Source: Candidatus Daviesbacteria bacterium (GTDB lineage Bacteria; Patescibacteriota; Microgenomatia; Daviesbacterales; UBA10151). From it: a stretch of DNA of 64,000 nt. Below the pieces are notes generated by a model. It was given only the letters and a program-made list of their open reading frames with translations, ran no database searches and was not told the DNA's origin. How positions within the stretch are numbered: the stretch's first letter is position 1; each line of letters starts with the position of its first letter. The DNA lies in the NCBI GenBank assembly GCA_030699125.1, contig JAUYKM010000011.1, positions 36,937 to 100,936 on the forward strand, in the 5' to 3' direction. Positions 847-4,029 of the stretch are shown here, one piece after another. The position numbers and the translations under genes are program-made.

Positions 847-1206
847 TCAGAGAGAGGATGTGGGAAACATAAGCTTAACTAAGAAATATCCTACAATAAA
901 AGCCCCAACTAATTGTAAAAGTACGGTAATTCTGTATGCATTAATGCCTTCTACTTCATTTTTTGTCATTGAGTAAGTAAGTTTTTCTGCAACTTTCGGA
1001 GGTATTAAAGATAGCAGGAATATAAGCACTAAACCCACAACTAAGAAAATACCAATAATTGGACCAGAGATTCCCCCACCCATTAAAGCACTAAAGCCAC
1101 CAATTAATACAGCCATAATACCAAAAGGAGCTATAAATGCTAATAGTATACTACCAAGAATACTGCATCCAATGATGGTAAACCAGTATTTCACTTTATT
1201 AGACAT
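847..1206 (-). CDS. Small polytopic membrane protein (hypothetical)
   Basis: 119 aa, 3-4 predicted hydrophobic helices, Gly-rich. Confidence 0.4.
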   Translation of the reverse strand: MSNKVKYWFTIIGCSILGSILLAFIAPFGIMAVLIGGFSALMGGGISGPIIGIFLVVGLVLIFLLSLIPPKVAEKLTYSMTKNEVEGINAYRITVLLQLVGAFIVGYFLVKLMFPTSSL

Positions 1207-1221
1207 AATATGACTTTATCA

Positions 1222-1378
1222 TACAGTTATGCTAAAATCTATAAAATATAGCTATTCCGATCCCGGATCGGAAGATATCGCACAACAGGTAATTCTATGA
1301 TAAAATCTGCCAATGGCTTTGAATGTAAATGAGTTAAGAAGCCTCATAATATACCCCTTTAGTAGTGCCTCTTTTTTT
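1222..1378 (+). pseudogene. Diverged duplicate of the efp promoter (TGCTAAAAT + hairpin) and first ~10 codons of efp (MALNVNELR...), terminating after 24 codons
   Basis: nt 1228-1340 align with nt 3398-3500, the true efp promoter and start. Confidence 0.6.
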
Positions 1379-1546
1379 GATTAAACCAGCATCAGTAAGT
1401 TTTTTGATATGATATCGAAGCGTTCGATCCTTTATACCTAAAAATTTTCTTCTAAGCTCTCGCGAACTTATAATTTTATGTTCTCTTATAACTTCCAAAA
1501 TGGCTGCTTGTTTTATAAATAGGGAATCCTCTAAAGACATTACCAT
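1334..1546 (-). CDS. Small winged-helix (MarR/ArsR-like) DNA-binding protein
   Basis: 70 aa with a wHTH-like pattern (SSRELRRKFLGIKDRTLRYHIKKLTDAGLI). Confidence 0.45.
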   Translation of the reverse strand: MVMSLEDSLFIKQAAILEVIREHKIISSRELRRKFLGIKDRTLRYHIKKLTDAGLIKKRGTTKGVYYEAS

Positions 1547-1598: not shown

Positions 1599-1994
1599 TT
1601 AGGTTAACTCCAGGAGACCTTTTTTAAAATCTAAAGTCAGTTTAAAATGTTTAAGAAAAGATAAACCTAAAAGTCCATCAGCAGGTGTTTCGGGCGGAAG
1701 GTCTTTAACAATAGCCTCCACATTTTTAACTTTCTTTCCTAAAATTCTCATTTCAGGAATAATAATTTTTGATATTGTTTCCACGGTTGAAACAGAAGTT
1801 AGTCTTACAGTATTTTTAGGATCAATAGGTATACCAATTCTAGAAACTAAATCATAGGGGAGTGCAACATAGCTTGCTCCAGTATCTAATATAAGTTTTG
1901 CAGCTGTTGGGAAAGTGGCCTTTATATCTGCAGTGACAATTATAGAAAGAGATTGAGGATTAAATTTTAGCTGGGACATAAAAGAGGAATGCAC
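1599..1994 (-). CDS. Retropepsin-like (clan AA) aspartic protease domain protein
   Basis: LILDTGASYVALP catalytic motif plus GLLGLSFLKHF, typical of bacterial retropepsin-like/TIGR02281 proteins. Confidence 0.7.
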   Translation of the reverse strand: MHSSFMSQLKFNPQSLSIIVTADIKATFPTAAKLILDTGASYVALPYDLVSRIGIPIDPKNTVRLTSVSTVETISKIIIPEMRILGKKVKNVEAIVKDLPPETPADGLLGLSFLKHFKLTLDFKKGLLELT

Positions 1995-2190
1995 CCTTTA
2001 CCTCGCCAGTATATATAGTGGCTATGTGTGTTCCCTTAGGAAGAGTAGGAATCCTCTTATAAAGTTCATAACGATTTTTACTCGCCATAATAGGTTTTAC
2101 ATCTACTAGCTGATTTAGCTTATCCTGTTTTAAAACTTCGGCCAAAACCCAAGTGTTTTTATATTTTTTATTCACTTCGGAGATTTTCAT
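1960..2190 (-). CDS. Hypothetical 76-aa ORF immediately upstream of, and overlapping by 35 nt in the +1 frame, the retropepsin-like ORF
   Basis: The +1 overlap contains U-UUU-U and A-AAA-U runs. It may be the N-terminal part of a frameshifted protease gene. Confidence 0.3.
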   Translation of the reverse strand: MKISEVNKKYKNTWVLAEVLKQDKLNQLVDVKPIMASKNRYELYKRIPTLPKGTHIATIYTGEVKGAFLFYVPAKI

Positions 2191-2212
2191 AATTTCATTA
2201 TAGCACAGAAAA

Positions 2213-2303: not shown

Positions 2304-2537
2304 GTGACTAAGCGAGAGAAAAGAGTTAGAAAGCTCTTTCAAAATCCAAAAACAGTTCCTTTTAAAGAATTGGATAGAGTTTTAAAAGATGCTGGTTTTA
2401 AAATGAGACAGCCTGGGTCTGGCAGCAGTCACTCTGTTTATACAAAAGGAGAAATTCAAATCTCGGTGCCTTTCAGAAGGCCTTTTGTAAAAGAAGTGTA
2501 TGTTAAAAGAGTTTTGGAATTATTAGGAGAAGAATGA
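2304..2537 (+). CDS. hicA: HicA toxin (mRNA interferase, YcfA-like)
   Basis: 77-aa basic protein with HicA-like SH3/dsRBD pattern (GSGSSHSVYTKG); overlaps the hicB start. Confidence 0.75.
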   Translation: MTKREKRVRKLFQNPKTVPFKELDRVLKDAGFKMRQPGSGSSHSVYTKGEIQISVPFRRPFVKEVYVKRVLELLGEE

Positions 2538-2884
2538 GAAATAAGAATCTTAAATATTATCTCAATTTAGATTACACTATCCGCCTTAAACAAAACGTGG
2601 ATGGAAGTTATTTTGTGGAAATTGAAGAATTACCTGGTTGTATGAGTGAAGGTGATACAAAGATGGATGCTTTGAAGATGATTGAAGATGCCAAAAAAGC
2701 TTGGTTGGAAGTTGCGTTAGCAAGAAAAATAAATATTCCTGAACCGGAAAAAGATGAATTTAGTGGTAAATTAAATGTTAGAATGCCCAAATTCTTGCAT
2801 AGAAAATTGTCATATAAATCAAAACAGGAAGGGGTTAGTTTAAATACCTTAATTTCTACTACTCTAGCTTCCACAATCAGGTAA
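2534..2884 (+). CDS. hicB: HicB antitoxin (UPF0150 fold + C-terminal RHH-like DNA-binding tail)
   Basis: 116 aa. YFVEIEELPGCMSEGDT matches the HicB N-domain. The C-terminal KLNVRMPKFLHRKL is RHH-like. ATGA-coupled to hicA. Confidence 0.75.
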   Translation: MRNKNLKYYLNLDYTIRLKQNVDGSYFVEIEELPGCMSEGDTKMDALKMIEDAKKAWLEVALARKINIPEPEKDEFSGKLNVRMPKFLHRKLSYKSKQEGVSLNTLISTTLASTIR

Positions 2885-3048: not shown

Positions 3049-3309
3049 TTAAGACTTAGGAGCTTCTTTTATAAAATGTTCTACTAATTGTGAGTCGCCT
3101 TCAAGAAATGTTACAAACAAAGGGGTAGGCATTTGTAGGACTATCTCTCCTTTAGAGTTTTGTAGAACCACTTCAAGATCAGCTGCTGATATTATCTTTA
3201 ATCCTCTCCGAAGAGATAAAGATTGTCTAGTCAGATCACTTACAGATTTTTGTTCTGCCTTTGCTTCAGCTTTCAGAGCAGTTAATTCAGATGAGGATAC
3301 ATCTACCAC
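3049..3309 (-). CDS. Hypothetical 86-aa protein
   Basis: ORF only; no recognisable motif. Confidence 0.3.
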   Translation of the reverse strand: MVDVSSSELTALKAEAKAEQKSVSDLTRQSLSLRRGLKIISAADLEVVLQNSKGEIVLQMPTPLFVTFLEGDSQLVEHFIKEAPKS

Positions 3310-3397
3310 TACTCTTGGTCTATCATTTCTTTCAGACTTTTTTATATTATAGGATAAAGGGTAAAAATTGTCAAGTTTATTGTCCTAAAATCTTTTA

Positions 3398-3465
3398 TTA
3401 TGCTAAAATCTATAAATTAGATCCTTCTCCCGCCTTTGGCGGGATCAGGATGACAGGAGGGGTAT
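3398..3465 (+). promoter_or_regulatory. Putative efp promoter: extended -10 (TGCTAAAAT) followed by GC-rich hairpin CCCGCCTTTGGCGGG
   Basis: TGn+TAAAAT sits 60 nt upstream of the efp ATG. The same module is duplicated at 1228-1290. Confidence 0.45.
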
Positions 3466-4029
3466 ATGGCACTAAATGTAAATGAATTAAGAAATGGGAC
3501 GTTTTTTAAAGAAGGGAAAGATATTTTTTTGGTGGTTACTTATGAACATATGAAAACTGGCCGGGGATCCGGCAATATTAAACTAAAGGTGAGGAATTTA
3601 AGATCCGGGGCAGTGGTGGAGAAATCCTTTATTACCGGAGCCCGGGTGGATGAAGCAAATGTAGAGAAAAAAAAGGCCCAGTTTTTATACCGGGATGGAG
3701 ACATTTTTAATTTTATGGATCCTGTCAGTTTTGAGCAGTTTTCAATTTCTGCCAATGTAGTAGGTGATCAGGCCAAATATTTAAAAGACGGGTTGGAGGT
3801 AACTTTGATTGTTTCTGAGGATGAGGCCTTGGGAATAGAACTTCCTTTAAGTCTGGTATATGAAATCTCGGAAACAGGCCCAGGTGAGCGGGGAAATACT
3901 ATTTCTAATGTTTTTAAAGAAGCAACACTGGATAATGGATTGGTTGTAAAAGTCCCTATGTTTATTGGTGTTGGAGAACATGTTAAGATTGATATCAGGT
4001 CAGGAGAATATGTGGAGAGAGTAAAATGA
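3466..4029 (+). CDS. efp: Elongation factor P
   Basis: 187 aa with full-length EF-P architecture and motifs (KTGRGSGNIKLKVRNLRSG, OB folds). Confidence 0.9.
   Translation: MALNVNELRNGTFFKEGKDIFLVVTYEHMKTGRGSGNIKLKVRNLRSGAVVEKSFITGARVDEANVEKKKAQFLYRDGDIFNFMDPVSFEQFSISANVVGDQAKYLKDGLEVTLIVSEDEALGIELPLSLVYEISETGPGERGNTISNVFKEATLDNGLVVKVPMFIGVGEHVKIDIRSGEYVERVK

Follow-up and report, generated by a model that had tools for sequence, protein, structure and literature searches.

An overlapping gene pair in a Daviesbacteria genome encodes a retropepsin-like protease and a small conserved upstream protein

Introduction

Single-lobe retropepsins must act as homodimers, and the aspartic protease APRc (ApRick) of Rickettsia conorii is a longer, membrane-anchored protein which, to our knowledge, has no dedicated small upstream partner. 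The protease described here shares with APRc (PDB 5C9B, 5C9D, and 5C9F) a single lobe, the clan AA type, and the D-T-G motif, but unlike APRc it is a minimal soluble domain of 126 amino acids. Two other kinds of genetic system resemble the locus in part. In gag-pro (-1) and prfB (+1) recoding, an upstream open reading frame (ORF) overlaps a downstream ORF in another frame, as it does here, and the downstream product of the present pair is, as in gag-pro, a retropepsin-type protease; programmed frameshifting is rare in bacteria, and recoding at this locus would therefore have been notable. Type II toxin-antitoxin systems are similarly small, tightly coupled, and co-directional, with the small gene first, and likewise show a patchy distribution in bacteria and archaea, multiple copies in a genome, and a location in toxin-antitoxin-rich regions. 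Typical type II antitoxins, however, carry a DNA-binding domain, whereas the small protein of this pair has no DNA-binding fold and the "toxin" would be an aspartic protease; we know of no aspartic-protease toxin among toxin-antitoxin systems. The nearest catalogued entry is PDC-M08, a two-gene cassette (CAS_00054, FAM_03167>>FAM_00414) with 381 occurrences, which is one of 145 phage-defence candidates and was proposed as such because it occurs within BREX, DISARM, or type I restriction-modification (RM) systems (Payne et al., bioRxiv 10.1101/2024.01.29.577857). The pair has so far been known just as this entry in a defence-candidate list, and a literature search on DUF5678, COG5550, Asp_protease_2, and retropepsin with toxin-antitoxin returned nothing on it.

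The locus analyzed here lies within a window of 64,000 nucleotides from a Candidatus Daviesbacteria bacterium, the term denoting the whole stretch of DNA that was examined. Its small gene, ORF-A, is located immediately upstream of the protease gene on the same strand, the order in which the A and B components of PDC-M08 occur, and profile comparison indicates that the pair matches this candidate, strongly for B and weakly for A. The PADLOC profile PDC-M08B aligns with the window protease at 7.5e-12 (residues 14-122 on profile positions 13-122 of 127), and PDC-M08A aligns weakly with ORF-A (E = 1.9e-4), over residues 1-27 alone against an 86-position profile; the latter profile is also matched by 10 of 20 diverse ORF-A relatives (best 1.6e-6), which match no other family. 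In both cases, a small A protein is followed on the same strand by a B protein of ~127 residues. The settings differ: PDC-M08 was defined from RefSeq genomes, inside BREX, DISARM, or type I RM systems, whereas the window pair occupies the interval from efp to an M1 peptidase gene, with a HicAB pair next to it. A small DUF5678-like partner and a minimal retropepsin constitute one widespread module conserved across bacteria and archaea, and the window locus is an ordinary operon junction belonging to a member, from the candidate phyla radiation (CPR), of this catalogued but uncharacterised two-gene family. To the PDC-M08 entry, the survey of related loci adds a much wider taxonomic range, the almost invariable stop-start coupling of both genes, natural fusion and tandem-partner variants that argue for a physical complex, and a specific candidate contact, the conserved C-terminal tail of ORF-A.

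The protease gene

The protease gene (1599..1979, minus strand) encodes a single-domain retropepsin-like aspartic protease of 126 amino acids, counted from the ATG at 1979-1977. Its catalytic motif D32-T33-G34-A35-S36, located from the sequence and from an alignment with 26 relatives, is encoded at 1872..1886 on the minus strand, with the codon of the catalytic Asp at 1886-1884. Scores exceed the Pfam cut-offs for Asp_protease_2 (PF13650, 55.1 bits vs 24.3) and gag-asp_proteas (PF13975, 51.3 bits vs 28.2) and fall below the NCBIfam cut-offs for TIGR02281 (clan_AA_DTGA, 38.8 bits vs 57.95) and TIGR03698 (23.2 bits vs 57.35). In the 26 aligned relatives, D32, T33, G34, and the block D-G-L-L-G-L-S-F-L are invariant and the N-terminal residues F6 and P8 are at least 90% conserved, and D-T-G-A/S was found in 152 of 162 related protease ORFs. 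The AlphaFold2 (AF2) model has a pLDDT of 92.7, and its closest match by Foldseek is Rickettsia APRc (TM 0.74, E = 1.6e-6), followed by the HIV and SIV proteases and Ddi2. A sequence-profile search of the PDB agrees with the fold search in returning APRc as the best solved relative (7.3e-5), and the fold also matches Ddi1; a PHROGs profile search gave a weak, generic "protease" match and nothing else. The identity of the product as a single-domain retropepsin-like protease of clan AA, already recognized in a preliminary description of this DNA, is solid.

With the first GTG as start codon, the ORF would extend from 1994 to 1599 and encode 131 amino acids, including L-I-L-D-T-G-A-S. The protease homologs, however, are 123-132 amino acids long and mostly 126 (among the 120 best of 605 homologs), and they align starting at M-S-x-L-K-F. 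For these two reasons, the true start is placed by comparison with the homologs at the ATG at 1979-1977 rather than at GTG 1994. The preliminary description had correctly reported that the D-T-G-A-S ORF overlaps an upstream 76-amino-acid ORF on the minus strand and lies in the +1 frame; the overlap of 35 nt that it counted from GTG 1994 becomes one of 20 nt.

The small protein ORF-A

ORF-A (1960..2190, minus strand) starts with ATG, encodes 76 amino acids, and ends at a TAA at 1962-1960; a protein identical to it has been deposited separately (P0001). Its conserved core comprises residues 1-70 and ends in G-A-F-L-F, after which the last six residues, Y-V-P-A-K-I, form a tail without conservation in the alignment of its homologs. 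In the relatives, the segment Y-T-G-E-I-P-K-K-G-Y-A-V-A-F at the C-terminus is strongly conserved and predicted to be unstructured; beyond this end the residues are variable, and many relatives terminate right there. The 77 homologs collected are 70-88 amino acids long, and a profile search with the ORF-A alignment against 1.84 billion representative proteins returned 134 clusters, almost all of 46-108 amino acids. Four exceptions are informative: the fusion P0345, the tandem-domain proteins P0294 and P0313, and the chimera P0272. The AF2 model (pLDDT 90.7) has an alpha-beta-beta-alpha-beta core followed by a C-terminal coil of lower confidence.

Neither a Pfam domain in the 77 homologs nor a Pfam or NCBIfam match to ORF-A of the window itself was found, and comparison with solved structures gave no significant match. 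The sole matches returned by the PDB sequence-profile search, designed TIM barrels, were rejected as spurious. Profile and structure searches recognized no DNA-binding domain (RHH, HTH, AbrB, etc.) in ORF-A.

A distant relationship of ORF-A to DUF5678 (PF18929, cut-off 23.2 bits) is probable from profile scores. Weak matches of 12.6-17 bits occur in seven of 10 ORF-A relatives, an ORF-A-protease fusion protein (P0345) scores 18.8 bits, and one protein with two ORF-A domains (P0294) scores 23.7 bits, just past the cut-off; the ORF-A of the window has no match at E <= 0.1. Membership is withheld because direct comparison of the ORF-A profile with one genuine DUF5678 protein by hhalign was not significant. 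A comparable arrangement exists in locus L175 (8782-9494), where a genuine DUF5678 protein (108 amino acids, 48.2 bits) is encoded by a gene that overlaps a second, divergent retropepsin gene (132 amino acids) by 13 nt. Like the window pair, this is a small protein gene overlapping a retropepsin gene, and it lies 2.5 kb from an ORF-A-protease pair. The surrounding region of L175 contains repeated ABC substrate-binding genes, among which toxin-antitoxin pairs are scattered.

Geometry of the junction

The overlap of ORF-A and the protease gene spans 1960..1979 on the minus strand. The slippery-looking strings near the stop codon that had drawn attention to the locus, CUC-UUU-UAU and GCU-AAA-AUU-UAA, are present in the ORF-A frame. 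The TAA of ORF-A arises within TTT-AAT, the conserved Phe6-Asn7 codons of the protease, and the A/T-rich runs are accordingly what the L-K-F-N codons of the protease (CUA-AAA-UUU-AAU) look like in the ORF-A frame. Nothing special is needed to explain two same-strand genes that overlap to this extent.

The homologs were compared in a survey of 160 loci with protease relatives, 80 of them from species-representative genomes and 80 from metagenomes, in which the translated ORFs were searched by profiles of both proteins. An ORF-A homolog was located immediately upstream in 118 of the 137 proteases having at least 300 nt of upstream sequence, and none of the 160 loci contained a single ORF matching both profiles. 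At the 108 non-redundant junctions, the spacing between the ORF-A stop and the protease start covers almost all values between -37 and +15 nt, and a few gaps are larger; the most frequent spacings are -1 (TAATG/TGATG, 13 loci), -4 (ATGA, 10), -11 (eight), -13 (11), -14 (16), and -20 (11), and three junctions have zero gap. The -20 geometry of the window, where it recurs, always occurs at the conserved F-D/N codons (tTGAt, tTAAt). Relative to ORF-A, the protease gene occupies the +1 frame in 50 of the 108 loci, the +2 frame in 44, and the same frame, behind the stop codon, in 14; in 105 it starts with an ATG that aligns with profile position 1.

That the two ORFs are separate genes expressed without frameshifting is, from this comparison, almost certain, and the "two overlapping genes" that the preliminary description listed as an alternative is the correct description. 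Its main suggestion was expression in the manner of gag-pro, by which programmed +1 frameshifting in the 20-35-nt overlap would yield an ORF-A-protease fusion and an autoprocessing polyprotein. The +1 frame of the protease and the U- and A-runs beside the stop codon are what this reading would lead one to expect, and one lineage does have the two proteins joined covalently in a single polypeptide (P0345), so that a fused product can be viable; yet that fusion stems from an in-frame arrangement without a stop codon and not from recoding. Against recoding, too, the frame relation and the length of the overlap vary among the loci, the protease gene has a conserved ATG of its own, and the junctions share no slippery motif, the nucleotides differing even within the -20 class to which the window belongs. 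Stimulating elements were likewise not found at the window junction: there is no Rfam element, the RNA is not more stable than shuffled sequence (z = 0.25; the predicted hairpin includes the protease AUG), and no Shine-Dalgarno sequence lies next to the A/T runs of the overlap, where one 3 nt upstream would be expected by analogy with prfB. In lacking a conserved slippery site, stimulator, or frame, the pair differs from the known recoding systems. The homolog comparison that the preliminary description had itself named as decisive has thus refuted a gag-pro-style frameshift, because the homologs are two separate genes with their own starts, and programmed frameshifting is now very improbable. 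The overlap might instead be an artefact or a product of decay, in which a homopolymer-length error or a real indel split one ORF, or in which the pair is a pseudogene. The source is a metagenome-assembled genome with T4 and A4 runs inside the overlap, and decayed copies do exist elsewhere, including a protease frameshifted just past the catalytic D-T in a Patescibacteria genome (L013/L099, 3900-4279) and a 135-amino-acid deletion chimera (P0272), which joins ORF-A to the C-terminal half of the protease and has lost the catalytic half with D-T-G. In the window, however, both ORFs match their families collinearly over the full length, with catalytic and core motifs intact, the combination of 76 and 126 amino acids with a 20-nt overlap is found in 11 independent loci and in the syntenic relatives L165-L168, and the deposition of the identical 76-amino-acid protein was separate. 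The separate-gene architecture seen in the junction survey excludes a sequencing indel or decay for the window copy, both of which had been raised earlier, to the extent that an artefact of either kind is judged extremely improbable. A coupled two-gene operon, in which each gene has its own start, the overlap has no recoding role, and ORF-A would serve as partner or regulator of the protease, is very probably the full explanation.

Fusions, expression, and proposed function

Rearranged forms of the pair occur in nature. P0345 (203 amino acids) is an in-frame fusion of ORF-A with a complete protease (...E-G-Y-V-A-M-F-G-C-M-D-V...D-T-G-A-S...), and contigs of at least two samples carry it (L176, 2072-2683; L177, 519-1130), with the internal ATG kept. 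Immediately downstream of the fusion gene lies a gene for a tRNA synthetase (class II core; Pfam tRNA-synt_2). Fusion is rare and arises through loss of the stop codon in an in-frame arrangement. By the Rosetta-stone argument, this natural fusion favours the view that ORF-A and the protease work together physically, and physical partnership of the two is likely. In addition, P0294 (207 amino acids) and P0313 (172 amino acids) each contain two tandem ORF-A domains, a possible sign that ORF-A functions as a dimer.

A putative extended -10 promoter, TGC-TATAAT (TGCTATAAT), read from the sequence at 2197..2205 on the minus strand, ends 6 nt before the ORF-A ATG; the consensus promoter scan did not list this box because it has no -35 match. 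A TGn plus -10-like box located 6-10 nt before the ATG, without a Shine-Dalgarno sequence, recurs in 12 CPR relatives (L002-L005, L008, L088, L089, L095, L097, L161, L162, and L165), and this recurrence suggests that the ORF-A mRNA is leaderless or near-leaderless. Similarly, the window has no Shine-Dalgarno sequence at a useful spacing before the protease ATG, which together with the near-universal apposition of stop and start codons suggests that translation of the protease is coupled to that of ORF-A. Transcription would start at the extended -10 promoter immediately before the ORF-A ATG, and the ORF-A frame, once past the end of its core at G-A-F-L-F, would run to the first stop that chance provides inside the protease codons and so acquire a junk tail of six residues. 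Ribosomes translating or terminating on ORF-A would probably reach the protease ATG, and the two proteins would be co-produced. The protease is predicted to be catalytically competent and would act as a homodimer, while ORF-A would be its dedicated binding partner, most likely holding it in check, with the conserved unstructured C-terminal segment as the probable contact. The pair would then behave like a toxin-antitoxin or defence-type accessory module.

For ORF-A, the role of an inhibitor or antitoxin, rather than of a substrate or activator, is proposed tentatively from the sequence comparisons, at somewhat less than an even chance. In a different account, the genes are likewise separate and ORF-A is a substrate or precursor, for example a small effector or a pro-segment, that the protease would mature or release by cutting at or near the G-Y-A-V-A-F end. 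Retropepsin cleavage sites are typically hydrophobic and aromatic, which the conserved C-terminal motif also is; the motif is predicted to be unstructured in the ORF-A monomer (AF2), the variable tails that follow it would be removable, and in P0345 it coincides exactly with the boundary between the two domains (...G-Y-V-A-M-F-G-C-M-D-V...), the place expected of an autoprocessing site. Many ORF-A proteins, however, end exactly at ...A-F and leave nothing to remove, as at the 13 TAATG/TGATG and three zero-gap junctions, and neither a transmembrane segment nor an enzyme motif, as an effector might have, was found in ORF-A, so that cleavage of ORF-A as a substrate appears distinctly unlikely. 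A related and rather unlikely possibility is that ORF-A is a separately encoded pro-segment or pseudo-substrate whose ...K-G-Y-A-V-A-F tail would occupy the substrate cleft of the dimer; the protease would stay inactive until this tail was removed in response to, for example, phage infection or stress. If so, this would be the first aspartic-protease-based toxin-antitoxin or abortive-infection switch, common in small CPR and DPANN genomes, and it might be the prokaryotic counterpart of autoprocessing by retroviral proteases. A protease-based switch of any kind would add a new class of effectors to the toxin-antitoxin or defence field.

Distribution and neighbourhood of related pairs

According to the labels of the source records, the pair occurs in CPR bacteria (Daviesbacteria, Gottesmanbacteria, Roizmanbacteria, WWE3, and Saccharibacteria), in DPANN archaea (Nanoarchaeota, Woesearchaeota, Pacearchaeota, Aenigmatarchaeota, and Micrarchaeota), in other archaea (Thermoplasmata, Methanophagales, and Methanosarcinales), and in other bacteria (Omnitrophota, Bipolaricaulia, Dehalococcoidia, and others). 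Three contigs labelled "uncultured Gammaproteobacteria" (L002, L003, and L009) contain modules that are 50-55% identical to the Daviesbacteria protease and have CPR-style promoters; these bins may be mislabelled, or the module may have been transferred. Multiple copies are found in some cases, for example, two in tandem in L023 and two on one contig in L034/L035. The neighbours in relatives are often toxin-antitoxin genes, of several types, namely AbiEii with HTH/PIN, PIN, PemK with DUF433/DUF5615, HepT/MNT, FitA/PIN, and MazE/PIN. In the window, L161, and L165, the pair is located among housekeeping genes and not within a restriction or BREX system. A scan for protease relatives on viral contigs found none, and it is the patchy distribution of the pair that points to its mobility.

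The gene island around the window pair

In the syntenic relatives L165-L168, efp and the M1 peptidase gene are separated by nothing but the ORF-A-protease pair, whereas additional genes are present in the window. A gene for a winged helix-turn-helix (wHTH) protein (1546..1334, minus strand; HTH_20 match 6.2e-8) follows the protease gene, and a gene for a 119-amino-acid membrane protein (1206..847, minus strand) is a further extra specific to the window. On the other side, a HicA/HicB pair (2304-2884, plus strand) with a 4-nt overlap is divergent from ORF-A; HicA scores 22.4 bits, under the Pfam cut-off of 27, and HicB scores above its cut-off. Beyond it, an ORF of 86 amino acids (3049-3309, minus strand) has weak RelB/NikA-like (ribbon-helix-helix) matches and no partner gene, and it is preceded by a sigma-70 consensus promoter (3346-3374, minus strand) with a perfect 12/12 match (TTGACA, 17-nt spacer, TATAAT). 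None of the 160 related loci has the wHTH gene, the membrane protein gene, or the ribbon-helix-helix-like ORF as a neighbour; HicAB alone recurs, as a close copy beside the module in one other Daviesbacteria genome (L001). The preliminary description had regarded a retropepsin paired with a wHTH protein on a mobile cassette as unusual, but the wHTH gene is not conserved beside the pair elsewhere, and the pairing is therefore incidental, a local adjacency; nor does the cassette hold in the form proposed, since the wHTH gene is an extra of the window.

In the 64-kb window, there is no tRNA gene, no Rfam family at the gathering threshold, and no second copy of ORF-A or of the protease gene; the GC content is 39.6%. 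Between the protease stop codon and the wHTH gene, 5.2 tandem copies of a 10-bp unit (ATTACCAAAT, plus strand) occupy 1539-1590 and extend into the wHTH start codon (1546), and these repeats may be operator sites for the wHTH protein. The promoter and first codons of efp are partly duplicated, with 86-95% identity between 1227-1340 and 3398-3493, and the copy in the island sits between the membrane-protein and wHTH genes. Similarly, the M1 peptidase gene has its final ~47 nt duplicated with 87% identity (763-809 vs 2213-2259), the second copy being located just upstream of ORF-A, which suggests that repeated duplication or insertion events built the island.
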